Source: Candidatus Poribacteria bacterium
GTDB lineage: Bacteria; Poribacteria; WGA-4E; GCA-2687025
Direction: 5' to 3'
DNA length: 64,000 nucleotides
NCBI GenBank assembly: GCA_963665845.2
Contig: OY762492.1
Coordinates: 512,001-576,000, forward strand
The position numbers and the translations under genes were made by a program. A model generated the notes under the pieces. It did no database searches and was not told the origin of the DNA. It saw only the letters and a program-made list of their open reading frames with translations. Positions 13,621 to 56,230 of this stretch are shown in pieces; position 1 is the stretch's first letter; the number at the start of each line of letters is the position of its first letter.

Positions 13621-13788
13621 CTGACCTCATGCCTAAAGTTGGGACATTTAAACGACCAAAGCCATTATTCATGGGAAAAAAGCCTCGCAGGCCAGATCGT
13701 CATTCCCGCGTAAGCGGGAATCCAGAGGCGCCGCAGAAGATGTCCGCGTTCGCATGCCGGCATGCCCCAACTAAAGACGTAAGGTCAG
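13621..13788. mobile_element. MITE-A, complete 168-bp copy with TTCAAA target duplication
   Basis: TIRs ctgacctcatgcctaaagttgggaca / tgccccaactaaagacgtaaggtcag; ttcaaa on both sides; central palindrome. Confidence 0.85.
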
Positions 13789-14103
13789 TTCAAACCGCGT
13801 TTCACGGGATGGTACGCCCATGCGGTGAACTTCATTTTGACCCTAGAGCGTCCGCGCCGCTGCGCCCGTCCTTTAAACCCCCTAGCCCCCTTTCAAGGGG
13901 AATCTGATCTCACGCCTAAAGTTGGGACATCCCGGCATGGAAACGCAGACGGTTTCTGCGACGCCTCTAGATTCCCGCTTGCGCGGGAGTATCTGTGTTC
14001 AAAGTCAATCATTTTGCGCTTTCCGTAGCGCCGAAAGTCGCCGCGGCGGATATTTTTCGGCAGTACCGAAGGAGCCGCCGCAGCGAGATTTCGGAAAGGG
14101 TTT

Positions 14104-15306
14104 TCATCTGCCTTGCGTCCTGTCGCTTGACTGCGGATCCGAAGACGCCGATGCCGGCGCTTCTCCAGGCGCCGGCAGCGCCTCCCCGACAGCCTCGTCA
14201 GAAGGCGCTGCGGCAGATGTTTTGATCGGCGCCGCGACCGACGCATCGGAAGACCCCAACTCTTCCGATGGCGCCTCAGCCTCAGTTTCATCCTGCTCAT
14301 CAGAAGACGCCGACTCTTCCGACGAAGCCAACGAATGCAGCTCATCCAAAGGAACCCAAGGCGTCTCCCGCTTCAGAATCGCGTTCGCAAGAACCGCCAG
14401 CTTCCGCATCACCGCCACAAGAGCCGCCTTCCCAGGCTTGCCGTTCTCCTTCAGACGCTCGTAAAACACCTTCATGTCCGGGTTGAAACGAATCGCCGAC
14501 ATCGCCGACATATACAGAAGCGCGCGAACATCGCTCCGACCGCCCCAAATATGACGCCGACCTGTCGACTTACCGCTCTCGCGCGCCCAAGGAGCCAAAC
14601 CAAGCAGGGAACAGATCTGACTCCCGCTGCGCCTGCCCAACTCCGGCACATGAAGAACCAGATACGCGGAAATGAGAACCCCGAAGCCCGGAATGCTCTC
14701 CAACAGGCTGAACTTCTCGCGAAGCTCTGCCTCTTTCTTGACCAATGCCAGAGCTTCCCGCTCCGCCGCGTCACGCTTCTCTTTCAGGGACTGGATGATC
14801 TCTTCGGTCGCATCCTTGGTCGCCTCGCCGTCCAGCAGATGCTTCCGATTGGTCCACTGAGTGATCGTTTTCACCAGCTGCATGCGTATCGTCATCCAGC
14901 GGCGAGCCTTTTTCACGACCGGATCGATCGGTTTCGTTGGTTTCAGATCGCGGCTCAGCCCATACAGCGCGAGCATCTTGGCGTCCAGCGCGTCGGTCTT
15001 GGCGCGGACGCTGTAGGAGCGGATGAAGTTATGGGCAAAGTTTGGATGGCAGCGGCGGTAAGGGATCTCTGCTTCGGCGAGCAGCGACGCCAGTTTCCGC
15101 TCGTATCCGCCGGTCGGTTCAAAGACGACCATGTTGATGTCGGGGCGGGTCGTCAGGAGGCGTTTGATGAACCGCTTGATGGGGCTCGCGGCGTTTTTGA
15201 TGGTGGAGGTTTTCCCGCTGTTGATGGAGATTTCAAGCGTGTCTTTGGACGCGTCGATTCCGGCGACGATTTTGTTGCTGTTTTCGTCGTGGCGTGGTAT
15301 GTTCAT
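14104..15306 (-). CDS. IS110 DEDD recombinase/transposase with acidic C-terminal tail
   Basis: GIDASK, FEPTG, KTDALDA (DEDD); SIPGFG; ARESG catalytic Ser; AVMRKL. Confidence 0.95.
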   Translation of the reverse strand: MNIPRHDENSNKIVAGIDASKDTLEISINSGKTSTIKNAASPIKRFIKRLLTTRPDINMVVFEPTGGYERKLASLLAEAEIPYRRCHPNFAHNFIRSYSVRAKTDALDAKMLALYGLSRDLKPTKPIDPVVKKARRWMTIRMQLVKTITQWTNRKHLLDGEATKDATEEIIQSLKEKRDAAEREALALVKKEAELREKFSLLESIPGFGVLISAYLVLHVPELGRRSGSQICSLLGLAPWARESGKSTGRRHIWGGRSDVRALLYMSAMSAIRFNPDMKVFYERLKENGKPGKAALVAVMRKLAVLANAILKRETPWVPLDELHSLASSEESASSDEQDETEAEAPSEELGSSDASVAAPIKTSAAAPSDEAVGEALPAPGEAPASASSDPQSSDRTQGR

Positions 15307-15324
15307 TTTCGTTCTCCTTTCGGG

Positions 15325-15525
15325 AGAAAAGGACAAGAAGGACCGGCCTCCTTACTTGTATTCTGTAACAAGAACACGGTATCTGTGCGGAGCCTCCGGT
15401 CTTTCTTGTCTTCTTTGCGCGGCTCTCGATACTCCCGCACGGCGCCGCTGCGAAGCAACGCGCCCAAGACGGTCTGGAGTCTGACCGCGCTACCCCTTAA
15501 GTATGCGCTTACTCGAGGGGCAAGA
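15325..15525 (-). ncRNA. Putative bridge RNA of IS110 copy 1 (ends approximate)
   Basis: Non-coding left end with two stem/internal-loop/stem domains whose loops match target and donor halves. Confidence 0.7.
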
Positions 15526-15722
15526 TCATCATACAAATGACGGTTGGATCGGCGGGCCGCCGCGCAAAAAATGAACGTTCTCGCCTGTAGAGACTTCCTT
15601 GAGCGCAAACGAATCTCCGCCGTGTCATGACCATAACCTAAGCGGAGTTTGCGGTTGCCCTTTACTACAGATTCATATAACGTGCGGCTTGAGTATTCAG
15701 GCGCGAAAGGGAGAGCGGTTGT

Positions 15723-16766
15723 ATGTTGAAAGCATGTGTGATCGGATGCGGGCGCATGGGCGCCACCATCGACGACGAAATACGCGGACATCCCACCAGG
15801 ACGCCGACGCTGCCATGGGCGCACGCGGCGGGGTTCGCTGAATCGGACAGGGCGGAGCTGACCGCCGTCTCCGATGTCGACCCAGAGAAAGCAAAGAGAA
15901 TTCGCGAGCGGTACGGGGCAAAGCGTTCCTATCTGGACTACCGCGAAATGATCTTGACCGAAAAACCGGACATCGTCTCCATTGCGACGCGCCCCGGCCC
16001 GCATGCCGAGATGACCGTCTTTGCGGCGGAAAACGGCGTCAAAGGAATCTACTGCGAAAAACCGCTCTGCTGCTCAATGGAAGAAGCGGACGCCATGGTC
16101 GAAGCGGTGGAACGCAGCGGCGCCAAATTCAACTACGGCGTCAACCGCCGATACACCCCGCTTTTCCGAAAAATGCGCCAGATGATCGATGAAGGCGCCG
16201 TCGGAAACGTTCAGGCATGCATCGCGTTCTGCGGCGTCGGCTCGGCAATGTGGTCGCACACGCATGCGGCAGACCTGCTGCTCAACATGGCGCAGGACTC
16301 GGAGGTTTCACATGTTCAGGGCGCCTTGCGCTGGGCGGAATCGGACCTGGACGGCAACTCTCTCCGAACCGACCCCGGCGTTGAGATGGGGTATGCGCGA
16401 TTCAAAAACGGCGTTCACGGCTATTTCACCGCCGCCTCCGGCTACGAGTTTGAGGTGAGCGGAACGAAGGGCAAACTGCGCACCCACAACGACTACTCAA
16501 CGCTGGAATGGCGCTCATACGACAAGTGGAGCGTCCTTCAACGGCAGGAGCTGGAGCCGATACCCGCGCAAAGCCCGACGCTGAACCTGATTGCGGAGCT
16601 GGCAGACGCGGTCGAGAACGACGGCGAGACGACCGGCAACATACAGATCGCGCGGCGCAGTCAGGAGATCATGTTCGGGCTGGTGGAGTCGCATCGTTTG
16701 GGCGGCGTTCCCGTTCCGCTTCCGCTTGAGAACCGCGGCTTGCGCGTCATGCCGGGCGGCTGGTAG
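15723..16766 (+). CDS. Gfo/Idh/MocA oxidoreductase
   Basis: IGCGRMG, DIVSIAT, CEKP. Confidence 0.9.
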   Translation: MLKACVIGCGRMGATIDDEIRGHPTRTPTLPWAHAAGFAESDRAELTAVSDVDPEKAKRIRERYGAKRSYLDYREMILTEKPDIVSIATRPGPHAEMTVFAAENGVKGIYCEKPLCCSMEEADAMVEAVERSGAKFNYGVNRRYTPLFRKMRQMIDEGAVGNVQACIAFCGVGSAMWSHTHAADLLLNMAQDSEVSHVQGALRWAESDLDGNSLRTDPGVEMGYARFKNGVHGYFTAASGYEFEVSGTKGKLRTHNDYSTLEWRSYDKWSVLQRQELEPIPAQSPTLNLIAELADAVENDGETTGNIQIARRSQEIMFGLVESHRLGGVPVPLPLENRGLRVMPGGW

Positions 16767-17949
16767 GCGGGGGCGTCACGCTTCCGAGAACGGCGGGCTG
16801 CGCCGCCCCGGTGGCGCGCGGCGCGTTGGCGGTCAACCCGCGCATCGTCTCCCTTGCGAGCAGGGCGAACAGCGCCGCCTCTTTCGACTCCGCCGAGACG
16901 CCCCATTCGTCGGGCTGTCGGAAACGGAGCGGCATGCCGCGTTTTTCCAGAGCCGTTTTCAGCATGCGCATGAGCGTTCTGTTGAGCGCGCCGCCTCCGC
17001 TCACAATTATCTCGCGCAGGTCGGGAGGTCCGTGCCGCTTTGCGGCGTCGGCGATCGTTTCGGCGGTGAACGCTGTCAGCGTCGCCATGAGGTCGTCGTC
17101 GGAGAGTCGGCGCCGCCGCCCCTCTTCGATGAGGGTACGGGCGTACGGCGCGCCGAACATTTCTCGACCTGTGCTTTTAGGCGGATCGCCGGCGCAGTAC
17201 GGGTGGAGCGTCCAGTTTTGGAGAAGAGACGGGTCGGACTTGCCTTGAGCGGCTTGCTCTCCGTTGTTGTCGTAAGGGCGTTTTCCGTTGGAAAAAAGAA
17301 CCGCCGCGGCGTCCATGAGCGCGTTGCCGGGGCCGGTGTCGAAAGCGGTCGTTTCGCTGAAATCGGCGCCTGCAGGCAGGAAAGCGATGTTGGCGATGCC
17401 GCCGATGTTGAGCAGCGCGCGGCTCGCCGTTCGTGAACGAAAAAGCGTCCAGTCGAGATACGGGGCGAGAGGCGCGCCTTGTCCGCCGAGGGCGACATCG
17501 ACCGCGCGAAAATTGTCGACAACAGGCAAACCCGACCGGACAGCGATGGCGGCGGGGCATCCGATCTGCAGCGTCGCATGGGGCGGCTCATGCCAGAGGG
17601 TCTGCCCGTGCGATCCGACGGCGAGCATTTCGTCGGTTGAGAAGCCCGCGTCCTGGACAATACGCCGCGCCGCATTTCCAAACGCATGCCCGATGTGAGC
17701 GTTCAGAAGGCAGATTTCGCGCGGATCGGCATCGCCTTCAAAGGCGCGCATGAGCCGCCCGCGCAGCCGCGGACGATGCGGCGTTTCGGCGTAATGCAGA
17801 ACGCGCAGGCGCGCCCGCCCATCATCGTCGTCGTCGATTTGGACGAGCGCGGCGTCGATCGCGTCGGCGGAGGTGCCGGACATGAGACCGACAACATGGA
17901 CGCTTTTCTGCTGCGCGCGCTGCGCGAGTTGTTGAAGCCAGTTGACCAT
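16747..17949 (-). CDS. anmK: Anhydro-N-acetylmuramic acid kinase
   Basis: GLMSGTSAD, GSHGQT, GGQGAPL, NIGGIAN, FDTGPGN, KSTGRE, KEA. Confidence 0.95.
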   Translation of the reverse strand: MVNWLQQLAQRAQQKSVHVVGLMSGTSADAIDAALVQIDDDDDGRARLRVLHYAETPHRPRLRGRLMRAFEGDADPREICLLNAHIGHAFGNAARRIVQDAGFSTDEMLAVGSHGQTLWHEPPHATLQIGCPAAIAVRSGLPVVDNFRAVDVALGGQGAPLAPYLDWTLFRSRTASRALLNIGGIANIAFLPAGADFSETTAFDTGPGNALMDAAAVLFSNGKRPYDNNGEQAAQGKSDPSLLQNWTLHPYCAGDPPKSTGREMFGAPYARTLIEEGRRRRLSDDDLMATLTAFTAETIADAAKRHGPPDLREIIVSGGGALNRTLMRMLKTALEKRGMPLRFRQPDEWGVSAESKEAALFALLARETMRGLTANAPRATGAAQPAVLGSVTPPPTSRPA

Positions 17950-18001
17950 GACGCCGGCATTGTAGCGCTGTCGGGAGCGATTTGCAGCCCGTCCCGCGGC
18001 G

Positions 18002-19022: not shown

Positions 19023-19050
19023 GAGCGGGAGCGGCAAACTGCGACGCCTT

Positions 19051-20109
19051 TTAAAAGCGCGTCTCGGCGCGTTTCTCGGCGGATTCATACAGCGCGCTGG
19101 TGATCTGGGCGACGATCATGCCGATGCGCCCTGTGTCGATCGGCTCAATCCGCTCTAAGACGCTCCACACAAAATGGCGCTGCGAATCCTCATACCCCGC
19201 CGAGCTTTGCCCCTGTTGCCGCAGGCGCCGCTCGTAGCTGTCCAGGTTGAAGGAGACATTCGCGTCCATTCCGTAAAGGTCGGTGTAGAAGGTGAACGGG
19301 TTCAGCCGCAGCCCGCCAAGCGATCCGAACAGCTTGTCGCCGTCGAACTCGCCGAACGCCGCCCATGCCTCTTCGACGATCATCGTCACATCGTTTTTAA
19401 AGCGGACGACGCCGGCGGCAAACTCTTCCACATCGAAGCCGCTGTCGGCGCGCCGTTTTTCGTCCATCGGAATCTCGGTGAAGACGGAGCCGCTTGCCGT
19501 TTCTGGTTCGGGCATGCCGAGAAGATACACCATGCGCGCCATGTTGTAGATGCCGGTGTCGGCGAGGGTTCCGCCGCCCGATTTTTCTTTCTGTACAAAA
19601 TGCGTTGTGGCGTACCCGTCCACATAGACGCGCCCTTTGCGCCTGCCGTGGCTCGTTTTCACATAATAGACGCGTCCGAGCGCGCCGTCCTCAATGAGCC
19701 GTTTTGCCGCTTTCGTCTCGCGCGTGAAGACGGTGCCCATCTGTACATGGAGCTGCTTGCCCGCTTTCTGGGCGGCTTCGTACATCGCCTGCGCTTCATC
19801 GCCGGTACGCGCCATCGGCTTTTCGCAGTAGACATGTTTGCCCGCCTCCAGCGCGGCGATGGACACGGGCGCATGCAAAAAGTTCGGCAGGCACACATCC
19901 ACCGTGTCGATCTCATCAACGGCGAGCAGGTCGCGGTAATCCGAAAAAACGCGCCCGATGCCGTTCGCCTGGGCGACGCGCCGCGCCTCCGCTTCGTTGA
20001 TGTCCGCCAGCGCGACCAGCTCCACATCGCCGCGCATCTCCATATACCGCCGAACATGCGACTTGCCGATAATGCCCGCGCCGACGACGCCCGCTTTCAG
20101 TGTTGGCAT
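19051..20109 (-). CDS. Gfo/Idh/MocA oxidoreductase
   Basis: GAGIIG, CLPNFLH, CEKP, SGGGTLADTG. Confidence 0.9.
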   Translation of the reverse strand: MPTLKAGVVGAGIIGKSHVRRYMEMRGDVELVALADINEAEARRVAQANGIGRVFSDYRDLLAVDEIDTVDVCLPNFLHAPVSIAALEAGKHVYCEKPMARTGDEAQAMYEAAQKAGKQLHVQMGTVFTRETKAAKRLIEDGALGRVYYVKTSHGRRKGRVYVDGYATTHFVQKEKSGGGTLADTGIYNMARMVYLLGMPEPETASGSVFTEIPMDEKRRADSGFDVEEFAAGVVRFKNDVTMIVEEAWAAFGEFDGDKLFGSLGGLRLNPFTFYTDLYGMDANVSFNLDSYERRLRQQGQSSAGYEDSQRHFVWSVLERIEPIDTGRIGMIVAQITSALYESAEKRAETRF

Positions 20110-20130
20110 GCTGTTTTCCTCTGCCTTTGC

Positions 20131-21180
20131 TTAAAACTGCTCATACTCGTCTGGGCGGAGCCGCTCGGAGGTACTTGTTTGTTTCATCTGTACCGTCACC
20201 GTTGCGATGGTACCGCTCTCTTCGCCTGTCATGGACATGACCGCGTTGTTGATGATCTTGGTTTTGACGGGCCACCGATCCTCCTTGGAGATATGGACGG
20301 TACCCTCCATGTCGTACGATTCCATGTTGAGCGCGAGATTCACGCCCTCAATCTGTAGCGAGGCGGTTCCCTCCGCCAGCTTGCCTTCGCCGGTCAGCTC
20401 TAAAACGTGGGACGGAATTTTTTTAACGACCTTGTCCCCTTGGCGCGACCAGTTGAGCTGAATATCGGTCGTTATGGAGGTACCTTCCAGCTCCTCCTCC
20501 ACCTGCATCTCCTCTTCCCAAAGGTACTCGTTCAGCTTTGGGTAAACGAGGCCGGGAGCGATGATGTTGTGCTTCAAGCTCGCCTCGTTAAGGAAATCGA
20601 GGCTGGGTCCGCCGCTGTCGCCGCCGATCGATTCCAGCGCTGTCAAGAATTCCTTCGCCGCCGTCTTTTTGATTTCGCCGCGCGGCGTCATCGTGATTTT
20701 AAACGGCTCGTTCAAAAGCGACTTCGCGGATTCGGTTATCTCTCGGCTCGTTTCCTCCTTCATCTGCTCAATCTCCCCCTGCGGAAGATCCGGCGGAAAA
20801 GCTCCGCTAATGCCCGTCAAGGCGACATCAAACTTCTTATACTTCGTTTCGATGATCCCGTTCCCGTTTTCGACAACCTCAACAACGCGCTGCTCAATCA
20901 CCGAGTCGATCTCAAATTTCATTTTGATCGCTCCGGCGGGAGTGTTGATCGTCATTTCGATTTTCTGCTTGTCGCGGTAGGCGAACAGATCCCCCTCCTG
21001 CAGCCGAAAGCGGAGCGGGCCGTCTGTCTGCTCTGTCAGCTCCGTCGGCGACAGCGGCTCAACAGCTTCCTCCGTCGGCGTCAACAGCCCGTCCGTCTGC
21101 CCCGCCGGCGGGAGCAGACCCAACATCGCCAGCGCCAAACCTGTCAACATATACCGCGCCATTCGCCGTTCGTTCATCAT
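20131..21180 (-). CDS. Secreted hypothetical protein (DUF6263-like), paralog A
   Basis: Signal peptide; LRFRLQEG...FKITMTPRGEI; tandem paralog of the next gene. Confidence 0.65.
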   Translation of the reverse strand: MMNERRMARYMLTGLALAMLGLLPPAGQTDGLLTPTEEAVEPLSPTELTEQTDGPLRFRLQEGDLFAYRDKQKIEMTINTPAGAIKMKFEIDSVIEQRVVEVVENGNGIIETKYKKFDVALTGISGAFPPDLPQGEIEQMKEETSREITESAKSLLNEPFKITMTPRGEIKKTAAKEFLTALESIGGDSGGPSLDFLNEASLKHNIIAPGLVYPKLNEYLWEEEMQVEEELEGTSITTDIQLNWSRQGDKVVKKIPSHVLELTGEGKLAEGTASLQIEGVNLALNMESYDMEGTVHISKEDRWPVKTKIINNAVMSMTGEESGTIATVTVQMKQTSTSERLRPDEYEQF

Positions 21181-21218
21181 TGCGCTCCTTCGCCGTTGCC
21201 GTTTTCCTCTGCCTTTGC

Positions 21219-22262
21219 TTAAAACTGCTCATACTCGTCTGGGCGGAGCCGCTCGGAGGTAATTGTCTGTTTCATCTGCGCCGTCACCGTATCGATGGCG
21301 CCGCACTGTTCGCCTGTCATGGATAAGACCTGGTTGCTGACGATCTTGGTTTTGACGGGCCACCGATCCTCCTTGGAAATATGGACGGTACCCTCCATGT
21401 CGTACGATTCCAGGCTGACCGCGACATCCACGCCGTCAATCTGTAGCGAGGCGGTTCCCTCCGCCATCTTGCCTTCGGCGGTGAATTCCAAAATGTGCGA
21501 CGGGATTTTTTTGACAACCTTGTCCCCCTGACGAGACCAATCGATCTTCACATCGGTCGTCACAGAGCTGCCTTCCATCTTTTCAACGACCTTCATCTCC
21601 GACTTCCAGACATACTCCTCCAGCTTTGGAAACTCGAGGCCAGGGACAATGCGGTTTATCTTCAAGGTCTCTTCGGCGAACCAATCCTTGAAGGCGATCG
21701 GCAAGCCCGCAGGGAGTTCTATCGATTCTACCGCCGCTAAGAACTCTTTTGCGTCCACTTTTTTGATTTCGCCGCGCGGCGTCATCGTAACTTTGTACGG
21801 CTCGTTCAGGATCGGCGTTAAAAGCTCGGTCATCATGCGGCTCGCGGTCTCCATCGCCTGGTCAATCTCCTCCTGCGAAATGCCTGGCGGAACAAGCCCG
21901 CCAATGCCCAACAAAACGATGTCAAACGTCTTAAACTTCGTTTCAATGATCCCGTATCCGTTTTCTGCCACCTCAACAACGCGCTGCTCAACCACCGAGT
22001 TGACCTCATACTTCATTTTCATCGGTCCGCCGGGAGTGTCAGCGTTGATTTCGATTTTCTGCTTGCTGCGGTAGGCGAACAGATCGCCCTCCTGCAGCCG
22101 AAAGCGGAGCGGTCCATCGACTTTCTCCGCCGGCGTCAGCGGCTCAACCGCTTCCTCTGTTGGCGTCAGCAGCCCGTCCGTCTGCCCCGCCGGCGGCAGA
22201 AGACCCAACATCGCCAGAGCCAAACCTGTCAACACATACCGCGCCATTCGCCGAGACCGCAT
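21219..22262 (-). CDS. Secreted hypothetical protein (DUF6263-like), paralog B
   Basis: N- and C-termini near-identical to paralog A. Confidence 0.65.
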   Translation of the reverse strand: MRSRRMARYVLTGLALAMLGLLPPAGQTDGLLTPTEEAVEPLTPAEKVDGPLRFRLQEGDLFAYRSKQKIEINADTPGGPMKMKYEVNSVVEQRVVEVAENGYGIIETKFKTFDIVLLGIGGLVPPGISQEEIDQAMETASRMMTELLTPILNEPYKVTMTPRGEIKKVDAKEFLAAVESIELPAGLPIAFKDWFAEETLKINRIVPGLEFPKLEEYVWKSEMKVVEKMEGSSVTTDVKIDWSRQGDKVVKKIPSHILEFTAEGKMAEGTASLQIDGVDVAVSLESYDMEGTVHISKEDRWPVKTKIVSNQVLSMTGEQCGAIDTVTAQMKQTITSERLRPDEYEQF

Positions 22263-22340
22263 CGCGCTCTCCTTTTCAAAACCTTCAACACCGTTTCTAC
22301 ATTTAAGCATATATGAAAGAGACCGGAAATGCAAACGAAG

Positions 22341-22424
22341 CTGACCTTATGCTAAAAGTTGGGACATTTGAGCCGACGATCGCTCTATTCATGGGAAAAA
22401 GGCGCCGCCAACCAATCCGTCATT
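22341..22424. repeat. MITE-A left half interrupted by IS110
   Basis: ctgaccttatgctaaaagttgggaca...ttcatgggaaaaa...ccgtcatt. Confidence 0.8.
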
Positions 22425-22434
22425 TGTATGATGA

Positions 22435-22635
22435 CATTGCCCCTAGAGTAAGCGCATACTTAAGGGGTAGCGCGGTGAGACTCCAGACCGTCTTGGGCGC
22501 GTTGCTTCGCAGCGGCGCCGTGCGGGAGTATCGAGAGCCGCGCAAAGAAGACAAGAAGAACCGGCGGCTCCGGACAGATGTTGTGCATTCGTGCAGAATA
22601 CAAGTAGGGAGGCCGGTCCTTCTCGTCCTTTTTCT
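22435..22635 (+). ncRNA. Putative bridge RNA of IS110 copy 2 (ends approximate)
   Basis: Target loop CAGACCGTC (22484-92) / GCGGGAGT (22522-29); donor loop ACAGAT (22574-79) / ATACAAGTA (22598-606). Confidence 0.7.
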
Positions 22636-22653
22636 CCAGAAAGGAGAACGAGC

Positions 22654-23847
22654 ATGAGTCTAACTCAGACCAAGACAAACAGCAACAAAATCGTCGCCGG
22701 AATCGACGTGTCCAAAGACACGCTTGAAATCTCCATCAACGGCGGGAAAACCTCCACCATTAAAAACGCCGCGAGCCCCATCAAGCGGTTCATCAAACGC
22801 CTCCTGACGACCCACCCCAACATCAACATGGTCGTCTTTGAACCGACCGGCGGATACGAGCGGAAACTGGCGTCGCTGCTCGCCGAAGCAGAGATCCCTT
22901 ACCGCCGCTGCCATCCAAACTACCCCCATCACTTCGCCCGCTCCCAGCGCGTCCGCGCCAAGACCGACCCGCTGGACGCCAAGATGCTCGCGCTGTATGG
23001 GCTGAAGAACGATCTGGAACCGACGAAGCCAATCGATCCGGTCGTGAAAAAGGCTCGCCGCTGGATGACGATACGCATGCAGCTGGTGAAAACGATCACT
23101 CAGTGGACCAATCGGAAGCATCTGCTGGACAGCGAGGCGACCAAGGATGCGACCGAAGAGATCGTCCAGTCCCTGAAAGAGAAGCGTGACGCGGCGGAGC
23201 AGGAATGTCTGGCATTGGTCAAGAAAAATGCCGATCTCCACGCAAAGTTCCGTCTGTTGGAGAGCATTCCGGGCTTCGGGGTTCTCATTTCCGCGTATCT
23301 GGTTCTTTATGTGCCGGAGTTGGGCGCGCGCAGCGGCCGTCAGATCTGTTCCCTGCTTGGTTTGGCTCCTTGGGCGCGCGAGAGCGGCAAGTCGACAGGT
23401 CGGCGCCGCATTTGGGGCGGTCGGAGCGATGTTCGCGCGCTTCTGTATATGTCGGCGATGTCGGCGATACAGTATAACCCGGACATGAAGGCGTTTTACG
23501 AGCGTCTGACGGATCGCGGCAAGCCTGGGAAGGTCGCGCTTACGGCGGTGATGCGGAAGTTGGCGGTTCTTGCGAACGCGATTCTGAAGCGTGGAACGCC
23601 TTGGGTTCCTTCGGATGAGTTGCCTTCTTTGGCGTTGTCGGAAGAGTCGGCGTCTTCCGATGAGCAGGATGAAACAGCGGCTGCGGCGCCATCGGAAGAG
23701 TCGGGGTCTTCCGATGCGTCGGTCGCGGCGCCGACCGGAACATCTGCGTCTTTGGATGAGGCTGACGGGGAGGCGCTGCCGGCGCCTGGAGAAGCGCCGG
23801 CAGCGGCGTCTTCGGATCCGCCGTCAAGCGACAGGACGCAAGGCTGA
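22654..23847 (+). CDS. IS110 DEDD recombinase/transposase with acidic C-terminal tail
   Basis: GIDVSK, FEPTG, KTDPLDA, ARESG, AVMRKL; GAAAGGAG RBS. Confidence 0.95.
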   Translation: MSLTQTKTNSNKIVAGIDVSKDTLEISINGGKTSTIKNAASPIKRFIKRLLTTHPNINMVVFEPTGGYERKLASLLAEAEIPYRRCHPNYPHHFARSQRVRAKTDPLDAKMLALYGLKNDLEPTKPIDPVVKKARRWMTIRMQLVKTITQWTNRKHLLDSEATKDATEEIVQSLKEKRDAAEQECLALVKKNADLHAKFRLLESIPGFGVLISAYLVLYVPELGARSGRQICSLLGLAPWARESGKSTGRRRIWGGRSDVRALLYMSAMSAIQYNPDMKAFYERLTDRGKPGKVALTAVMRKLAVLANAILKRGTPWVPSDELPSLALSEESASSDEQDETAAAAPSEESGSSDASVAAPTGTSASLDEADGEALPAPGEAPAAASSDPPSSDRTQG

Positions 23848-24151
23848 TGAAAACATCTTTCCGAGAGACAGCTGCGGCGGCTCCTTCGGCTCTTGCCGAA
23901 AAATATCCGCCGCGGCGACTTTCTGGACTACGGAGAACGAGATATGGTTGACTTTGAACACAGATACTCCCGCGCAAGCGGGAATCCAGAGTAGACACCC
24001 TCCGCATCCTAAAACGGCTTTAAAATCAAAATCATCGTCTATAGAGACCGCCTCTAGCAGCGCAGGCGGGCAAAAGGCGCTATACTATGCTTTCATGATG
24101 CTCATGGATATTCATGGGCTTGTCGCGGATTCCGCGGGGAAGGCTTGGAGC

Positions 24152-40074: not shown

Positions 40075-40269
40075 GCTAAACCCCCTAGCCCCCTTTTCAA
40101 GGGGGAGTCTTGTTGCGCCCCTTTTCAAGGGGGAACGATCTGACCTCATGCTTAAAGTTGGGACATTTGAACCAACGATCGCTCTATTCATGGGAAAAAG
40201 GCTTCGCCAACCAGACCGTCATTCCCGCGGAAGCGGGGACGACCATCGGCGCCAACGCTTTAAGGTCAA
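40075..40269. repeat. Hairpin module plus internally deleted MITE-A
   Basis: ctgacctcatgcttaaagttgggaca...cagaccgtcattcccgcggaagcggg...taaggtca. Confidence 0.75.
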
Positions 40270-43148: not shown

Positions 43149-43516
43149 TTTAACTCCATGCGGCGGATCTGCTCAATCTGGGCGTCCGCCGCTTCTCTTT
43201 TCCGCCTTTCCGTCATGCGGGGATATTCGCGGCGCCGAGTCCGATTCCCCCCTTGAAAGGGGGCTAGGGGGGTTTAAAGGGCGGGCGCAGCGGCTGCGGC
43301 GCCTTAAGATTCCCGCTTACGCGGGAATGACAGCTTTAACTCCATGCGGCGGATCTGCTCAATCTGGGCGTCCGCCGCTTCTCCTTTCCGCCTTTCCGTC
43401 ATGCGGGCAATTCGAGGCGCTGAGTCCGATTCCCCCTTGAAAAGGGGCTAGGGGTTTAAAGCGCGGGCGCAGCGGCTGCGATGCCTTAAGATTCCCGCTT
43501 ACGCGGGAATGACAGC
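43149..43516. repeat. ~186-bp tandem duplication (terminator plus REP modules)
   Basis: Units 43149-43334 and 43335-43516. Confidence 0.88.
43160..43202 (+). terminator. Probable Rho-independent terminator of the NPCBM gene
   Basis: gcggcgga...tccgccgc stem followed by ttctctttt. Confidence 0.55.
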
Positions 43517-45292: not shown

Positions 45293-45405
45293 CCCGATCC
45301 CTCCAGCAGTCAAGTTTCATCTTCTTGCCATGATCGTTTAAAAGGCGCATTTTCGCATGTCGAAGCGTTTCAAGCGGATATGTCCGATATGAACAGGTTT
45401 TTCTA

Positions 45406-46260
45406 TGACCTTACGTCTTTAGTTGGGACATGCCGGCGGGCGAACGTGGACGGTTTCTGTGGCGCCTCTGGATTCCCGCACGTTTTACCGCAAGGGCAGG
45501 AATGACGAGTAGCCCAATGAAGCCGGGTAGGGCGGGAGGTTTCTAGACTCCCCCTTGAAAAGGGCCTGGGGGTTTGAGCGCGCGGGCTGCGCTTGGTTTT
45601 GAACTAGGATTGAAGGATTAGTAAGATTTTCAGGACAGCGTTTTCGGGAATTCTCTTGGCAATCTTTTCAATCCTGGAAATCCTAGTTCAGACAGCATCT
45701 AAGATTCCTGATTGCGCGGGGAATAACTGGGAGGCGGACGCGGGCGGTTTCGGGTCTGCCTCTGGATTCCCGCTTGCGCGGGAATGACGATCTGGTTGGC
45801 GGGGCTTTTTCCATAAATAGAGCGATCGTCGGTTCATGTTCTGACATTGTGTCTTTAGTAGGGATATGTCGGCATGACGTCTTACCGCAAGGCGGACGTC
45901 GTTTGCGGCGCCCTTAGGTCTGCGGGCTGCGCTTGGTTTTGAACTAGGATTGAAGGATTAGTAAGATTTTCAGGACAGCGTTTTCGGGAATTCTCTTGGC
46001 AATCTTTTCAATCCTGGAAATCCTAGTTCAGACAGCATCTAAGATTCCTGATTGCGCGGGAATGACTGGGAGGCGGACGCGGGCGGTTTCGGGTCTGCCT
46101 CTGGATTCCCGCTTGCGCGGGAATGGCGACCTGGTTGGCGGGGCTTTTTCCATAAATAGAGCGATCGTCGGTTCATGTTCTGACATTGTGTCTTTAGTAG
46201 GGACATGTCAGCATGACGTCTTACCGCAAGGCGGACGTCGTCTGCGGCGCCTTTAGATCT
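45406..46260. repeat. Composite repeat region including a 340-bp tandem duplication (45582-45921 / 45922-46260)
   Basis: Near-identical units offset by 340 nt; MITE-A pieces. Confidence 0.88.
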
Positions 46261-46294
46261 GTTGAAATGGCGCGGAAGCGTCTAGCCGACCGCC

Positions 46295-49216: not shown

Positions 49217-49308
49217 CGGCTAAATCCCTTCGCAGCGCTATGGCGATGGAAGCGTCATGACGTCTAGAGCCGCGGCTTTAGCAATTTTAACGAAGACATA
49301 TCTCTGTG

Positions 49309-50424
49309 TCAAGCGCGTGTACTGACCTCACGTCTTAAGTTGGGACATCCCGGCATATGAGAAATTTCCACCTGATGAAAGCCCTCCTCTTTATTCAGCG
49401 CCACAGCGTTCGTCCCAATCGCAAGTTGTGTTTGAGCAGCACAAAAAGCGGAGAATAGCTCAACCGTTTTTTTACTGCAGACCTCCTCCCGCGCCGCCTC
49501 GCCAATGATATACGCCAGCGAATACGCAATCAGCGTCAGCGCGATCATCGTTTCCGCCCGATCCCGGCGCCTGTTCATCAGTTTGGAAAGGCGAAGAAGC
49601 GATTTCAGATCCTTGAAACTCTCCTCAATCGTCATCCGGCCCCTGTAAATCTCCAGCCCCTTCTGCGGATCCTCCAAAGAGGTCATCACCCAGAGCGGCT
49701 GCGAGCAACCCGCCTCCCAAACACCAGCCAAATGAACCGGTATCCGCCCCTTGTAATACACATTCTTCAAGACGCACACTTTCCCCCTCGAAATGTTCAA
49801 CTGCGCGGGATTGCCGGACTTGTCCGTGAACTTCACGCCGCTGCCCGTATTGAGACGAATCACAAATGGCTGCTTCTTCGCGCGCAACTGCTCGAGAAAC
49901 CCTTCGTAACTGAACTCGCGGTCGAAGACAAGAGGGACATCCTCAATCAGTTTCCAGACCTTCTCCAGCGCCCGGATATGCTCAGTATTCCGAGACACGC
50001 ATTCAGAATGGATCGTTTTCGAGGAATAAACAGTGGCGTAGAACGGGATCACGCGCCCGCCGCGCGGTGTCCCTAGCATCAGCATCCAATAGCCGCGCCG
50101 GTTGTCTTTCAATCTGCCGACATATTCTGTCCGCTTCGCATGCGGGCGTTCGATTTCGGTCACATCGCCCACAACAAAGGGCGCGTCTTCATCGAATAAT
50201 CGCATCAGCGGCATGCAGGGATCCACGGTATTCAAGAAGCGGTTGAGAGCTTTGTTGTTTGCATTGGGGCTGGTTCCTTCCATCGCATGGCTGATGTCGG
50301 ACAGCCGGGGCGAGCCTGCTTTGAGGATCCCATGGAGAACGCGCGAGACGAGATTCGCGCCTTCGGCGAATATCTGTTGAACGAACGGAACGAGATCGGC
50401 GGGTCGTACCCTATTTTTCAGCAT
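49309..50424 (-). CDS. IS4-like DDE transposase (possibly frameshifted near C-terminus)
   Basis: VGDVT, VFDREF, YRGRMTIEESFKDLK (YREK); ORF runs past the TIR. Confidence 0.85.
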   Translation of the reverse strand: MLKNRVRPADLVPFVQQIFAEGANLVSRVLHGILKAGSPRLSDISHAMEGTSPNANNKALNRFLNTVDPCMPLMRLFDEDAPFVVGDVTEIERPHAKRTEYVGRLKDNRRGYWMLMLGTPRGGRVIPFYATVYSSKTIHSECVSRNTEHIRALEKVWKLIEDVPLVFDREFSYEGFLEQLRAKKQPFVIRLNTGSGVKFTDKSGNPAQLNISRGKVCVLKNVYYKGRIPVHLAGVWEAGCSQPLWVMTSLEDPQKGLEIYRGRMTIEESFKDLKSLLRLSKLMNRRRDRAETMIALTLIAYSLAYIIGEAAREEVCSKKTVELFSAFCAAQTQLAIGTNAVALNKEEGFHQVEISHMPGCPNLRREVSTRA

Positions 50425-50588
50425 CTGGATGATTCCTGTTGGAGAGCCTGTAAAGTAGAGTTCCGAAGCAGACGGTTGATCTGCCTCTCCATATCGTAAT
50501 TGTCCACAGCCGGGACTTCAAGATGCGCGAAGCGCGGTCGTTAGCCGAATCCTAAAGCGGAATGTCCCAACTTTAGGCATGAGGTCAG
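49322..50588 (-). mobile_element. IS4-like DDE insertion sequence
   Basis: TIRs ctgacctcacgtcttaagttgggacat / atgtcccaactttaggcatgaggtcag. Confidence 0.88.
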
Positions 50589-50599
50589 AGACAAACCGC

Positions 50600-50628
50600 T
50601 TGAACGGCGCGGCGGTTTGCCGTATCAT
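50600..50628 (+). promoter_or_regulatory. sigma70-like promoter
   Basis: TTGAAC-17 nt-TATCAT. Confidence 0.6.
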
Positions 50629-51430: not shown

Positions 51431-51442
51431 CTGGACGCGCGC

Positions 51443-53047: not shown

Positions 53048-53108
53048 CTTGACGAAACGCGCTCATGTCCCATTTCGTTATGAGAGGCAAAGATGAGCGT
53101 TCAAAACG

Positions 53109-54824
53109 ATGGACAAGAAAAAGTACCGCGTACTGCGCAGCCTGTCCGAACTGGAGCCGTATCCTGTACTGGCGGTCGACACGGAGTGCGATTCGCTCAA
53201 TAAGATGCAAGCGCGCCTGTCGGGCGTCTCCTTCTGCGGAGAGCCTGGGCGCGCCTTCTGGCTCCCAGCCGAACATCTGCGCCCCCGACCCTTAGAGCGG
53301 CTGCTGCGCTCCAAACGGCTCATCTTCCACCATGCCAAATTCGACCTGACGCTCCTGCAGCGCCACGGCGTGGACTTAACCGACGCGGACCTCTTCGACA
53401 CGCTCATCGCGGCTCATCTGCTGGACGAAAACCGTTCAAAGTCGCTCAAACGGCTCGCGCATGACCTCCTCGGCGACGCCTCGGCGTTAGAAAACGAAGG
53501 CTATTTTGACGACCTGTATCAACGCCGCCTCTTCGGCGACAAGCCGACGCTGGAGCAATACGCCTGCGCGGACGCCGACTACACCTTTCAGCTTTATCTG
53601 CGGTTGAAGCCGCATATTGACCTGGAGCCGACGCTCGCGCACCTGTACTACACATGCGAACTGCCGACGATGCGCGTCCTGCGCAAGATGGAAATGACCG
53701 GCTTTCTGATCGATACGGAGCATCTAAAGCGGATCGGAAACGCTTACCGCCGGCGCATGCAGACGCTAGACCTGGAAATATGGGGGGCGGCGGGCAGGCA
53801 TTTCCGCGTCAACTCGCCCGTAGAAATCGCCCGCATCCTCTACACAGAACTAGACCTCCCATCAACGCGGCAAACCCGCCGGGGGCGTCCGTCGGTCAAC
53901 CAATGGGCTTTAGAAGCGCTTCGCCACCGCCATCCTGTCGTCCCCCTGCTGTTAGAGCGTCGGGAACTGAAAACGCTGCTGGACAATTATATCGACAAAC
54001 TGCCCCAGCTTACCCACCCCAAAACGGGGCGCATCCACTGCAGCTTCAACCAAACAGGTACAGTGACCGGCAGGCTCTCCTCCAACGACCCGAATCTGCA
54101 GGCGATACCGAGGGGCGACGCGGTGCGCTCCGCGTTTGTGGCAGGCGAAGGGCGCGTTCTGATCGATGTCGACTTTTCCCAAGTAGAGCTCCGCTGCGCC
54201 GCCCATTATGCGCAGGACCCGAAGATGATGGCGGCGTTTCAGCAGGAGGTGGACCTTCACAAGAAAACGATCGCCGATATGCTCCATAAGCCCATCGAAG
54301 ACGTGACCCCCGAAGAGCGCGCCCTCGCCAAAGCGATCAACTTTGGACTCATCTACGGCATGGGGGCAAAGTCGCTCTCGGCGACGACGGGGCTGTCGTT
54401 GACCGAAGCGGAAGCGTTTATCGACGCCTATTTCACCGCCTACAAAAAACTGCGCAGCATACGCAAGGAGGTCTTGGCATACACGCGCAAGCGGCGTTAT
54501 ATCGTCAGCATGTTTGGACGGCGGCGCCGTTTCCCGACAGGCGACGCGCGAACCGCCTTCAACTCCATGTTACAGGGAACGGCGGCGGACATCTGCCGCG
54601 CAAAGATGATCCGCCTAGACAGCGAGCTGCCGCCCGACACGCAGATGCTGGCGCAAATCCATGACGAGATCGTCTTTGAAGCGCCAGCCGAATGCGCCGA
54701 AGAGCGCGTCCAGCAGATCGTGGACATCATGCAGGCCCCGGTGCGCGGCTACAACAACCGCCCCTTCCGCGTCCCGATCCGCGTTGAAGCGGGCTACGGA
54801 CCCAACTGGGGCGCCGCCAAATAA
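53109..54824 (+). CDS. Family A DNA polymerase lacking the 5'-3' exonuclease (Klenow-like)
   Basis: Exo DTE, HAKFD, YACAD; TGRLSS..PNLQ; motif A DFSQVELR, motif B RALAKAINFG, motif C IHDE. Confidence 0.92.
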   Translation: MDKKKYRVLRSLSELEPYPVLAVDTECDSLNKMQARLSGVSFCGEPGRAFWLPAEHLRPRPLERLLRSKRLIFHHAKFDLTLLQRHGVDLTDADLFDTLIAAHLLDENRSKSLKRLAHDLLGDASALENEGYFDDLYQRRLFGDKPTLEQYACADADYTFQLYLRLKPHIDLEPTLAHLYYTCELPTMRVLRKMEMTGFLIDTEHLKRIGNAYRRRMQTLDLEIWGAAGRHFRVNSPVEIARILYTELDLPSTRQTRRGRPSVNQWALEALRHRHPVVPLLLERRELKTLLDNYIDKLPQLTHPKTGRIHCSFNQTGTVTGRLSSNDPNLQAIPRGDAVRSAFVAGEGRVLIDVDFSQVELRCAAHYAQDPKMMAAFQQEVDLHKKTIADMLHKPIEDVTPEERALAKAINFGLIYGMGAKSLSATTGLSLTEAEAFIDAYFTAYKKLRSIRKEVLAYTRKRRYIVSMFGRRRRFPTGDARTAFNSMLQGTAADICRAKMIRLDSELPPDTQMLAQIHDEIVFEAPAECAEERVQQIVDIMQAPVRGYNNRPFRVPIRVEAGYGPNWGAAK

Positions 54825-54827
54825 GGT

Positions 54828-56015
54828 TTACGCCAGCGCCTTGGCGATCCGCTTTACGCCTTCCTCAATCGTCTCCGCCGACGCCGCAAACGACAGGCGA
54901 ATGCATCGGTCGTCCCCGAACGCGCCGCCCGGAACGACCGCCGTCTGAACCGCCTCCAAAAGATAATCGGCGAGATCGAAGGAGCTTTCGATCCGCTTGC
55001 CGCCCAGCTCCCGCCCGTAATGCGCCGAGACGTTCGGGAACACATAAAACGCCCCCTGCGGACGCGCATAGGTGACGCCCTCGATGCCGTCCAGCAGCCC
55101 GCAGATCAGATCGCGCCGCTCTTGAAACGCTTCGCGCATGACGGCGACCGCGTCCTGCGGTCCGGTCAACGCTTCCAGCGCCGCTTTCTGCGCGATGGAG
55201 GTCGGGTTGGAGGTGCTGTGGCTCTGAATGCCCGCCATCGCCTTGACAAGAGACGCCGGACCGACCGTCCAGCCGACGCGCCAGCCCGTCATGGAGTAGG
55301 TCTTGGAGACGGCGTTGAAAATGACCGTCAGCGACTCCATCCCAGGACGCAGCGCCGCAAGGCTGTAAAACGGCAGATTGTCAAAAACCAGCTCATCGTA
55401 AATCTCGTCCGCGACAACATACAGATCATGTTCCAGCGCCAGCTCCGCCAGCGCTTCCAGCCGTTCCAGCGAATACATGGTGCCGGTCGGGTTGCTGGGG
55501 CTGTTGACGATGAACGCCTTCGTTCGGTCGGTTACGGCGGCGCGGGCGGCGTCCGGCGAGAGGGTGTAATTGTCCGCCTCCTCCGTCTCCACGACGACCG
55601 GGACGCCCCCCGCCAGTTTCACCATCTCGGTGTAGCTGACCCAGTAAGGCGCGGCGATGATCACCTCGTCGCCAGGGTCGCAGACGGCTTGAAAAAAGTT
55701 GTAAAGGGCATGCTTGCCGCCGCATGAGATCAGCACGTTTTCGGCGGCGTAATCGATGCCGTGCGTTTTTTGGAACCGCGCGGCGACCGCGTTTTTCAGC
55801 TCAACGGTTCCGGAAGCGGGGGTGTATTTGGTGAAGCCCGCGTCCAGCGCGTCTTTGGCGGCGTCTTTGATGTTGTCGGGCGTGTCAAAATCAGGCTCGC
55901 CCGCTCCAAAACCGATCACATCCAGCCCCTCGGCTTGCATCGCTTTCGCTTTGGCGCTGATGGCGAGCGTCGCCGAGGGGGTGACTCCCTGCGCCCGTTT
56001 CGATAATGCTTTGAT
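54828..56015 (-). CDS. Class I PLP-dependent (aspartate-type) aminotransferase; apparent ATC start
   Basis: GAGEPDF, NSPSNPTG, DEIY, SKTYSMTGWRVG; homology-like N-terminus LSKRAQGVTPSATLAI upstream of the first ATG. Confidence 0.9.
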   Translation of the reverse strand: MKALSKRAQGVTPSATLAISAKAKAMQAEGLDVIGFGAGEPDFDTPDNIKDAAKDALDAGFTKYTPASGTVELKNAVAARFQKTHGIDYAAENVLISCGGKHALYNFFQAVCDPGDEVIIAAPYWVSYTEMVKLAGGVPVVVETEEADNYTLSPDAARAAVTDRTKAFIVNSPSNPTGTMYSLERLEALAELALEHDLYVVADEIYDELVFDNLPFYSLAALRPGMESLTVIFNAVSKTYSMTGWRVGWTVGPASLVKAMAGIQSHSTSNPTSIAQKAALEALTGPQDAVAVMREAFQERRDLICGLLDGIEGVTYARPQGAFYVFPNVSAHYGRELGGKRIESSFDLADYLLEAVQTAVVPGGAFGDDRCIRLSFAASAETIEEGVKRIAKALA

Positions 56016-56062
56016 GGTTCCGCCCTTTCTTCTCTCTTCAAGTACGGCGTCAACTCAATAAA

Positions 56063-56230
56063 CTGACCGCATGTCTAAAATTGGGACAGCTGAACGACCA
56101 AAGCCTTTATTCATGGGAAAAAGGCGTTGCCGACCAGTTCGTCATTCCCGCGTAAGCGGGAATCTAGGGGCGCCTTAGAGGCAGTCCGCGTTCGCCTTCC
56201 GACATGTCCCAACTAAAGACGTAAGGTCAG
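56063..56230. mobile_element. MITE-A, complete 168-bp copy with ATAAA duplication
   Basis: TIRs ctgacc...ggtcag; ataaa on both sides. Confidence 0.85.

Follow-up and report, generated by a model that had tools for sequence, protein, structure and literature searches.

Bridge recombinases such as IS621 and ISCro4 insert into a repeated extragenic palindrome, as does the IS110 element described here. Both have a DEDD and a serine domain, no terminal repeats or target duplication, a left-end bridge RNA (predicted in our case) with two guide loops and a promoter across the joined ends (PMC11208160, PMC11208158). In contrast to IS621/ISCro4, our element targets the NTS/dRS3 hairpin rather than the E. 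coli REP, pairs a TT target core with a CT donor core, has a left target guide that is mismatched to the target at position 7 in 9/10 copies, carries an acidic low-complexity tail of ~75 residues and finds some of its targets within a MITE. TT cores are tolerated by IS621-type recombination (PMC11208158).

The NTS/dRS3 (CGTC-1) repeat is described as forming mosaic arrays, with intergenic copies numbering in the hundreds, together with a repeat-bracketed gene for SsnA, a single-domain GIY-YIG protein (PMC11893778, PMC3733652). The same arrangement and consensus occur here. According to PMC3733652, CGTC repeats have no dedicated transposase, whereas here one repeat copy is fixed within a MITE bounded by terminal inverted repeats (TIRs), so that a minority of repeats gains a transposase. 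Spread of the repeat by the SsnA protein is a hypothesis in PMC11893778 as well. In Neisseria, an IS110-family enzyme is likewise tied to integration of the Nf1/MDA prophage in the dRS3 repeat family; Nf1 uses a CT motif located in the loop region of one dRS3 subtype (PMC7058167), whereas the IS110 element here cuts within the left arm of the stem (ATT^CCC) and mobilizes nothing but itself.

We analysed a 64,000-nt stretch of Candidatus Poribacteria DNA (assembly GCA_963665845.2, contig OY762492.1, positions 512,001-576,000, forward strand), hereafter the window, together with its source genome (G000, ~90% complete), a sister species (G001) and a further genome (G003). The explanation that we favor, and consider probable, is that a 168-bp MITE with IS4-type ends and an internal hairpin jumps to positions 9-10 bases upstream of predicted promoters, and that IS110 hits a fixed base of this hairpin inside and outside MITEs.

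A MITE bearing IS4-type ends

The IS4 family is defined by a Y-2-R-3-E-6-K motif and by DDE spacing (PMC2266710). The window contains one element of this type.

49322..50588, minus strand: IS4-type element, 1267 bp, the sole copy in G000, with no target duplication
49309-50424, minus strand: DDE transposase ORF of this element with YREK motif

The element has 27-bp TIRs that are alike at 24/27 positions. Its transposase has the motif residues Y260, R263, E267 and K274, the DDE residues D87, D168 and E267, and a Tn5-like fold; its family matches are IS4-like, yet fall under every NCBIfam IS4 cut-off. YREK, DDE spacing, 5'-CT ends, the 1267-bp length and the fold are shared with the IS4 family, the IS10 and IS50 subgroups being nearest by ends and size, whereas the duplication is 6-7 bp rather than ~9, the target is promoter-linked and the tail lies in another frame (PMC2266710). 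Instead of the single ORF of IS4, both the G000 and the G003 copies have the conserved tail in another frame; relatives either stop at an A run or read past it, and an in-frame TGA interrupts the frame holding the tail in the G000 copy. The element works like IS4/Tn5, although we do not claim formal membership of the IS4 family. A related IS in G003, 61% identical, resembles it in the type of its ends and is flanked by a 6-bp duplication. The databases contain 175 homologs of the transposase. Relatives of the IS4-type element were found in 3/176 genomes of the phylum and in 1/401 genomes of another group; none was found in plasmids or viral contigs. The G001 assembly contains MITEs but no full transposase.

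The preliminary description stated that the IS shares its ~27-nt TIRs with 168-bp MITE copies. We identified the following whole and partial copies.

13621..13788, plus strand: full MITE, 168 bp, 6-bp target duplication TTCAAA
42101..42269, plus strand: full MITE, 169 bp, 7-bp target duplication CGCCAAC
56063..56230, plus strand: full MITE, 168 bp, 5-bp duplication ATAAA; the empty orthologous site in G001 has a single copy of the duplicated bases
13904..13987, minus strand: MITE right arm and right half of the hairpin, adjoining the right end of IS110 copy 1
22341..22424, plus strand: MITE left arm and left part of the hairpin, adjoining the left end of IS110 copy 2
40140..40237, plus strand: half MITE, consisting of the left arm with a damaged hairpin at its end
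45405..45479, minus strand: half MITE, right arm
3248..3337, minus strand: MITE right arm and hairpin, closing a tandem hairpin array located beyond the span first described

The consensus left end of the MITE is identical to that of the IS4-type element at 28/28 bases and the right ends agree at 26/27, in line with the shared TIRs of the preliminary description; the palindrome that it placed within the MITE, GTCATTCCCGC, begins at position 79 of the 168-bp form. A search with the TIR gave 456 matches, compared with 3, 3 and 0 for three shuffled TIRs. Exact duplications of 5-9 bp flank 48 of 103 MITEs (0.8 with shuffled flanks), with lengths of 6 bp (22), 7 bp (17), 8 bp (4), 5 bp (3) and 9 bp (2), and are absent at 55; IS4-family duplications span roughly a helix turn, 7-13 bp depending on the subgroup. 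Thus TIRs of a cognate IS, lack of coding capacity, target duplication and a copy number of about 100 identify the element as a MITE. We also found 19 MITE pairs that were 97-100% identical at different loci with different flanks, and the MITE was missing in G001 at 7 of the 8 MITE loci that were collinear in the G001 sample. Empty sites and near-identical dispersed copies together point to recent mobility, and the empty sites show movement of the MITE with its hairpin. From the agreement in ends, in target bias and in the length of the duplication, we infer that the cognate transposase mobilizes the MITE in trans; to judge from these sequences, it is very likely the IS4-type transposase family that moved the MITE, with the hairpin carried along. 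Since the lone IS4-type copy lacks a duplication and contains the in-frame TGA, the youngest jumps may be the work of a different copy or allele.

The many half MITEs are likely products of later recombination at the hairpin. We considered whether the two half MITEs of the window once formed a single MITE that was divided when the inverted IS110 copies recombined into an inversion, and rejected this, as their outer flanks share no duplication.

Placement upstream of predicted promoters

TnGBS, ISLre2 and ISKra4, which are Mutator-like, insert at a constant distance ahead of the −35 box in housekeeping promoters (PMC3942029). Predicted promoters also flank the IS4-type element in the window, and both were identified from their sequence.

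49284..49312, minus strand: predicted sigma70-like promoter TTGACA-17-TAAAAT, starting 9 bases outside one IS4-type end and facing away
50600..50628, plus strand: predicted sigma70-like promoter TTGAAC-17-TATCAT, starting 11 bases outside the other end and facing away

MITE ends and related IS ends lie 9-10 bases upstream of predicted sigma70-like −35 boxes. Among 408 TIR ends, 97 matches to a −35/−10 motif fell at offsets 9-12 and 17 at the other offsets between 0 and 39, whereas only 3 of 42 matches fell at offsets 9-12 in a control of 1156 free-hairpin ends. The spacing recurred in G001 (17/22 matches at offsets 9-10; 53 ends) and in G003 (7/12 IS ends). Both ends are used, the left at 59/172 and the right at 50/130; the promoter motif is absent from the majority of TIR ends. 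The spacing of 9-10 bases and the use of both ends differ from TnGBS, ISLre2 and ISKra4, which insert 15-17 bases upstream and belong to another transposase superfamily (PMC3942029); the Tn5-like fold and IS4-like matches also place our element outside the Mutator-like group. The word "promoter" is absent from the main text of the IS4 family paper PMC2266710, and we found no direct precedent for promoter-upstream insertion by IS4-type elements in the open-access literature, in which we found only the Mutator-like case described.

This spacing might arise because the transposase simply prefers certain DNA sequences and selection acts on the insertions, with neither RNA polymerase nor sigma factor guiding it. 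Reading of target arms is frequent among DDE enzymes (PMC2266710), and the flank logo has CAA-SSS directly adjoining the duplication. However, the motif is one-sided, being present on both sides in 5/103 MITEs where ~10 were expected, which also rules out a symmetric palindromic target. Furthermore, alignment on the −35 box alone reveals an unselected TATAAT-like −10 box at 17 bases, motif-bearing MITE sides face a gene start in 55/65 cases versus 80/141, and a peak only two bases wide is not expected from selection alone. We therefore regard a mere sequence preference as rather unlikely. The reading that we favor is that the IS4-type transposase family likely places the MITE 9-10 bases ahead of predicted sigma70 promoters. 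It was originally proposed that these insertions are safely intergenic; called genes indeed contain only 1/408 TIRs and 21/979 hairpins, and the spacing upstream of −35 boxes is the likely reason for the safe placement of the MITE.

The NTS/dRS3 hairpin and IS110 insertion

13698..13725, plus strand: NTS/dRS3-type hairpin in a MITE, an unoccupied IS110 target, with the motif as in PMC11893778
23969..23992, plus strand: right hairpin half following IS110 copy 2, with no MITE arm beyond it
13988..15535, minus strand: IS110 copy 1, 1548 bp, recombinase ORF at about 14104-15306
15332..15522, minus strand: predicted bridge RNA of copy 1 (LTG 15465-15473, RTG 15430-15439, LDG 15378-15386, RDG 15354-15361)
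22425..23968, plus strand: IS110 copy 2, 1544 bp, recombinase ORF at about 22654-23847
22438..22627, plus strand: predicted bridge RNA of copy 2 (LTG 22487-22495, RTG with handshake bases 22521-22530, LDG 22574-22582, RDG 22598-22605)

The hairpin fits the published NTS consensus, with 709 exact pattern matches in G000 and none for a reversed control. By its sequence it is the known Neisseria-type NTS/dRS3 repeat, present at 979 sites, of which 746 are intact IS110 targets. G000 also has a 102-aa single-domain GIY-YIG gene (ssnA-like; C1 2298872-2299180) that is bracketed by inward-facing hairpins, and its product is 59% identical to a Neisseria ORF in the same repeat-flanked setting. The gene is also present in G001; a search of G003, which has 11 hairpins, did not find it. 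We considered RAYT as the hairpin source and rejected it, as no Y1 tyrosine transposase (PF01797) match was found in G000 at its ~90% completeness, with controls matched in 6/14. The hairpin is likely the base layer, at ~980 sites, spreading and reshuffling on its own, probably in association with the ssnA-like gene.

If free hairpins were decayed MITEs, then the MITE would be the source of all hairpins. In keeping with this, 170/746 intact hairpins retain a right-arm piece without a left arm. However, 443/746 have no MITE arm at all, and MITE likeness drops abruptly at the hairpin edge rather than fading. Moreover, only the hairpin part of the MITE matches in G003, and the repeat is widespread in other phyla. 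An origin of all hairpins from MITEs is thus very improbable. Instead, one hairpin would have been captured by the MITE, whose jumps would add a minority of new targets.

The recombinase of IS110 copy 2 has PF01548 (RuvC-like DEDD) and PF02371 (serine domain), and scores 189 bits against NF033542 (cut-off 140); the IS110 recombinase also matches PDB entries 9t56 and 8wt6. The observation that both copies in the window sit at the same nucleotide of the palindrome and carry guides in their non-coding end proved correct, both being inserted at GTCATT^CCCGC. This point was used by 10/10 G000 copies, a count that leaves out a degenerate 150-bp left-end piece at C1 2788199 without an intact junction. 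In G001 the IS110 copies are collapsed at contig ends and were scored as contig-end junctions; all of them (8/8 left, 7/7 right) are at the same hairpin base, and none is orthologous to a G000 site. P0132, a relative 53% identical, reads through the same junction. IS110 is strictly hairpin-specific. A metagenome scan by junction pattern matched 103 stretches, 80 of which became loci, none encoding an IS110 relative, and GTDB contigs contained relatives at 2 distant loci that were uninformative.

The element has no terminal inverted repeats and no duplication, and 10/10 junctions rebuild an unchanged hairpin with TT as target core and CT as donor core. The left junction retains the target core and the right junction the donor core, as predicted from the IS621 cleavage position. 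The left non-coding end has a predicted fold with four guide segments that match target and donor; the right guides match fully with one wobble, and the left target guide matches 6/7 non-core bases of the commonest site. These features make a bridge RNA encoded by the left end the likely guide of insertion. From the junctions, IS110 likely circularizes, forming a predicted TTGACT-17-TATGAT promoter across the joined ends, and its donor core CT likely recombines with the target core TT. The insertion of IS110 into a repeat is in itself established biology.

Relation between the MITE, the hairpin and IS110

The preliminary description proposed a relay in which one transposase spreads landing pads that the RNA-guided element exploits. 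Two points of it are supported, namely that the transposase family very likely spread the MITE with its hairpin and that IS110 is hairpin-bound, but the MITE is not the main supplier: only 91/746 intact hairpins (~1 in 8) lie between two TIR arms. The two IS110 copies in the window are not within a whole MITE either, copy 1 having only the right arm and copy 2 only the left arm. We examined whether the MITE might nonetheless be the working supplier, with IS110 tuned to the MITE-borne hairpin. A MITE-derived arm touches 10/10 G000 copies (background, 303/746), and 8/10 are beside a TIR arm (190/746; p 0.0005), which is above the prediction of a MITE-blind model. In addition, the left guide starts with ACCGTC, the commonest MITE flank (53/133 sites with a left arm versus 38/613 without), and this sequence occurs at 5/10 insertions versus 91/746 (p 0.0045). 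Genome-wide, however, just 2/10 copies are in a whole MITE, against 91/746 in the background (p 0.35), and no excess of MITEs remains once ACCGTC is taken into account (4/5 versus 53/91, p 0.32). The excess was not repeated among the 15 junctions of the sister species: left arms were found at 4/8 (p 0.47) and right TIRs at 4/7 (p 0.36), each against 20/48, and one G001 copy is in the hairpin upstream of ssnA. Such a relay is therefore unlikely. Because most hairpins are outside the MITE, the three layers are nested known parts rather than a dependent three-step system. The favored explanation would have the IS621-type IS110 land in hairpins within or outside MITEs, with a bridge RNA likely steering, so that two separate targeting habits, not one relay, would give safe placement.

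Hitch-hiking, by which the IS4-type transposase would move IS110-loaded MITEs as 1.7-kb composites, had also been suggested. Two G001 composites, paired via G000 synteny, keep duplications (an exact one of 6 bp and one of 7 bp that differs at a single base), and the G000 site of the second is empty; the same duplications are expected from sequential insertion, however. The left arms linked to IS110 in G001 are all of one subtype (4/4 versus 8/38 IS-free arms, p 0.004, for a feature picked post hoc), and those in G000 resemble one another beyond random expectation (permutation p 0.03), but right arms differ between the two G001 composites (overall arm similarity not significant, p 0.11), right-arm similarity in G000 is not significant (p 0.19) and the duplication is absent at both whole composites in G000. 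Taken together, hitch-hiking appears quite doubtful. For IS110 inside MITEs, too, we found no direct precedent in the open-access literature.

As for the proposed role in inversions, 159/402 synteny break ends are near a hairpin versus 6.8% at random. With an intergenic control, free hairpins were not special rearrangement points (93/163 versus 60/118 repeat-free long spacers, p 0.33), and only spacers with a TIR were raised at breaks (68/92, p 0.001). A role as rearrangement substrate has modest support.

A more elaborate chain would have the transcription machinery guide a Tn5/IS4-like clade to the upstream edge of sigma70 promoters, the MITE seed NTS hairpins there, and an IS110 with a guide drifted toward the MITE flank land in them and at times ride along, creating rearrangement hot spots before genes. 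If true, a promoter-seeking DDE, a hairpin nuclease repeat and a bridge RNA, which are unrelated as targeting systems, would work in series; we give this chain little credence. The favored explanation of two separate habits documents, from hundreds of ends in two genomes, apparent promoter-upstream targeting by a Tn5-like transposase, which could yield a gene-sparing insertion tool. It also adds a predicted bridge recombinase from nature that pairs a TT with a CT core and whose target repeat is common across many bacteria. For NTS/CGTC hairpins, which are said to lack a dedicated transposase, the MITE is one route to new sites.

The IS4-type element and mobility of the MITE

Every component was mapped across the source genome (G000; 3.98 Mb, three contigs, about 90% complete) and then set against relatives, chiefly a sister species (G001; of the same genus, aligned blocks on average 88% identical) and a member of the same family (G003). 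The window corresponds to C1:512001-576000 of G000. The preliminary description had reported that an IS and a MITE share TIRs, that the MITE contains a palindrome, and that IS110 lies at one nucleotide of that palindrome with matching guides; all three are present in the sequence. The IS is listed here.

Window 49322-50588: IS4-type element, the sole copy in G000 by blastn and tblastn

Its ORF matches PF01609, and IS4-type NCBIfam models match with scores below their cut-offs. The Y-2-R-3-E-6-K motif is present when the query is aligned with 15 of the 120 listed homologs (16 sequences in all), and the best structural match of the predicted structure (pLDDT 78) is Tn5 transposase. The family's conserved transposase tail lies in a different frame, past an A run; this frame has a TGA in the G000 copy and is open in the G003 copy. 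Because both A-run states are seen among close relatives, the A run alone does not mark a dead copy. No target duplication was found at the element, its flanks fall on two different G001 contigs, and at one of these flanks a MITE left arm occupies the corresponding position in G001.

A TIR search of G000 that tolerated up to 7 mismatches gave 456 matches, as compared with 3, 3 and 0 for shuffled TIRs. There were 130 facing pairs, 79 at 160-169 bp and 24 at 180-199 bp. The consensus of 59 MITE copies equals the left end of the IS at 28/28 bases and its right end at 26/27; as left corresponds to left and right to right, the match is end-specific. Of 103 MITE copies, 48 lie between exact 5-9-bp duplications (0.8 in flank shuffles), and 19 pairs that are 97-100% identical occupy separate loci with differing flanks. 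When the 103 loci were compared with a sample of the G001 genome, 64 were without a flank, 31 were split or one-sided, and 8 were collinear, with the MITE missing in G001 at 7 of these 8. For the window copy at 56063, the corresponding G001 site is cleanly empty. Moreover, in G003 an element whose transposase is 61% identical has ends of this kind and is flanked by a 6-bp duplication. From the end match, duplications, dispersed pairs, empty sites and G003 element we conclude that the MITE and its hairpin transpose as one unit, and that this IS4-type transposase family very likely moves them.

MITE placement relative to predicted promoters

Genes called by a purpose-built codon model contain 1 of the 408 TIRs and 21 of the 979 hairpins. 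MITEs favour divergent spacers (40/103 versus 343/1499 spacers). TTG(A/C) occurs about 10 bases outward, on one side only, at 65 of 206 full-MITE ends, as compared with an intergenic background of 3.4%. A -10-like box follows at 16-18 bases in 37 of these 65 ends (background 9.7%), and 55 of the 65 face a gene start. All 408 TIR ends taken together gave 97 full motif matches at offsets 9-12 (77 at 9-10) versus 17 elsewhere; the ends of free hairpins, which lack a MITE arm, gave 42 scattered matches, 3 at offsets 9-12. The spacing is repeated in G001, at 7 of 12 IS ends in G003, at single ends in two further genomes (G004 and G031) and, as read by eye, at one end in a genome of another group (G201). 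It is also found at both ends of the window IS, where the promoters are predicted. Fixed-distance promoter targeting, at 15-17 bases, is described for Mutator-like elements (PMC3942029); we found no report in the open literature of such targeting by IS4-type elements.

A second abundant short inverted repeat of the CCCC-TTTTCAA-GGGG type (window 13880-13903 and genome-wide, >300 exact matches) often adjoins MITEs and contains the word TTGAA, near which MITEs land.

The hairpin repeat layer and gene order

The hairpin conforms to the NTS consensus published by Chenal et al. (PMC11893778), a type described as the dRS3/CGTC-1 repeat (PMC3733652). Contig C1 of G000 has 979 hairpin sites, 746 with an intact 11-base IS110 target. 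Among the latter, 91 lie between two TIR arms (99 when the search span was widened to 700 bases), a TIR arm is present on one side or both at 190, and 443 are without a MITE arm. The palindrome had been correctly placed in the MITE, but the NTS/dRS3 repeat layer had been overlooked. No RAYT gene was found in the roughly 90% of the genome represented in G000. A 102-aa GIY-YIG gene (ssnA-like) lies between inward-facing hairpins, and its protein is 59% identical to a Neisseria ORF located in a dRS3 cluster. The exact hairpin pattern occurs in 4 of 31 genomes (709, 165, 11 and 1 occurrences), and both rich genomes have the GIY-YIG gene.

At an orthologous locus of G001 (L223, C16:144603-145244) and G000 (L001), the ssnA cassette has a MITE left arm next to it. 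Since the G001 copy at L223, which has an IS110 in its upstream hairpin, is frameshifted and G001 also has an intact copy at another place, the cassette appears to have moved. The 188-190-bp MITE form is defined by a 21-22-base mini-hairpin that interrupts the hairpin's left part at a fixed spot and has 99 exact matches genome-wide (e.g. L001:1187-1211). Because this insert removes the IS110 left target, it may shield sites from IS110. Tandem duplications at window 43149-43516 (186 bp, 94%) and 45582-46261 (340 bp, 97%) have one hairpin per unit.

In right-arm-only copies the MITE likeness ends just upstream of the hairpin, and some MITEs hold internal hairpin arrays with the duplication retained. 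We therefore infer that half MITEs likely arise by exchange at the hairpin.

Gene order is strongly scrambled between G000 and G001 despite 88% nucleotide identity (collinear blocks, median 3.2 kb, from 1.07 Mb of the 3.6 Mb of G001). By a measure that scores missing genes as breaks and may include assembly error in either genome, breaks affected 60/118 long spacers without repeats, 93/163 with hairpins only (p 0.33 versus repeat-free) and 68/92 with hairpin and TIR (p 0.001). Breaks are thus somewhat commoner at MITE loci, in modest support of their proposed part in rearrangement, but scrambling is general, and hairpin-only spacers resembled the repeat-free ones. A tandem duplicate at window 20109-22334 (80% DNA identity), which is also in G001, consists of two genes of roughly 350 aa that match no Pfam family.

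IS110 insertion and its relation to the MITE

G000 has ten IS110 copies, not counting one further degenerate fragment; nine are 1537-1552 bp, five have an open ORF, and one is 444 bp. A protein search did not reveal IS110 in G001, where its ends lie at the edges of contigs, with 8 left and 7 right junctions that are not orthologous to any G000 site; an eighth right-end match (L233, two mismatches) was excluded, having no element behind it. The shared nucleotide reported for the two window copies extends to all 10 G000 copies (GTCATT^CCCGC) and, at one and the same base, to the 15 G001 junctions. A database relative (53%) reads through the same junction.

Target TT is kept at the left junction and donor CT at the right, as expected if cleavage falls after the core; TT is described as a tolerated core (PMC11208158). 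The left end is predicted to fold into a 5' hairpin and two guide loops. Eight copies have ACCGTC-T-core as the left target guide and two have variants of it; its position 7 is mismatched in 9/10. Two donor-complementary bases, which resemble handshake guides, follow the right target guide, itself paired with the hairpin's right half. The donor guides match the joined ends, which from a sequence reading would give a TTGACT-17-TATGAT promoter-like motif; a promoter across joined ends is likewise described for IS621 (PMC11208160).

About 75 residues at the end of the recombinase form an acidic tail rich in Ala and Ser (window 23640-23847 and 14104-14320), which relatives of 53-67% identity also have, as judged by length. 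The 444-bp remnant, inside a whole MITE (G000 C1:469909-470372), ends at an internal donor-like site fused exactly at the CT core to the hairpin's right half. This fits a recombinase-made deletion by partial match, for which a comparison is available (bioRxiv 10.64898/2026.08.31.748434), or a short-homology deletion.

The MITE had been proposed as the IS110 landing pad. A TIR arm lies beside IS110 in 8/10 G000 copies versus 190/746 intact targets (p 0.0005); both arms are present at 2/10, left sequence only at 3/10 and right only at 5/10. However, the whole-MITE share in G000 was not raised (2/10; p 0.35), and G001 IS110 showed no MITE excess (4/8 and 4/7 versus 20/48). The guide's first six bases are the commonest MITE flank and are carried by 5/10 insertion sites (p 0.0045); given those bases, there was no further MITE excess (p 0.32). 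Thus a mild guide-level bias toward the MITE-type flank is possible, and dependence on the MITE is not borne out.

IS110-loaded MITEs could also move as composites, as duplications kept at two G001 composites and one left-arm subtype common to four would suggest; such hitch-hiking is unlikely, however: divergence between arms is 7-19%, and the two duplication-bearing composites have unlike right arms. One G001 IS110 site (C7:41392 region, L238/L231) has a flanking direct repeat of about 24 bases in place of the left MITE arm; the matching G000 locus has a whole MITE.

REP-targeting IS110 elements are described as established (PMC11208160; PMC3184786), an IS110-bearing Neisseria prophage is reported to target dRS3 (PMC7058167), and target hairpins are reported to matter for ISPpu10 (bioRxiv 10.64898/2026.03.19.712850). 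As judged from sequence, what is particular here is the stack, in which an apparently promoter-seeking IS4-type MITE carries an NTS hairpin that doubles as the IS110 target.
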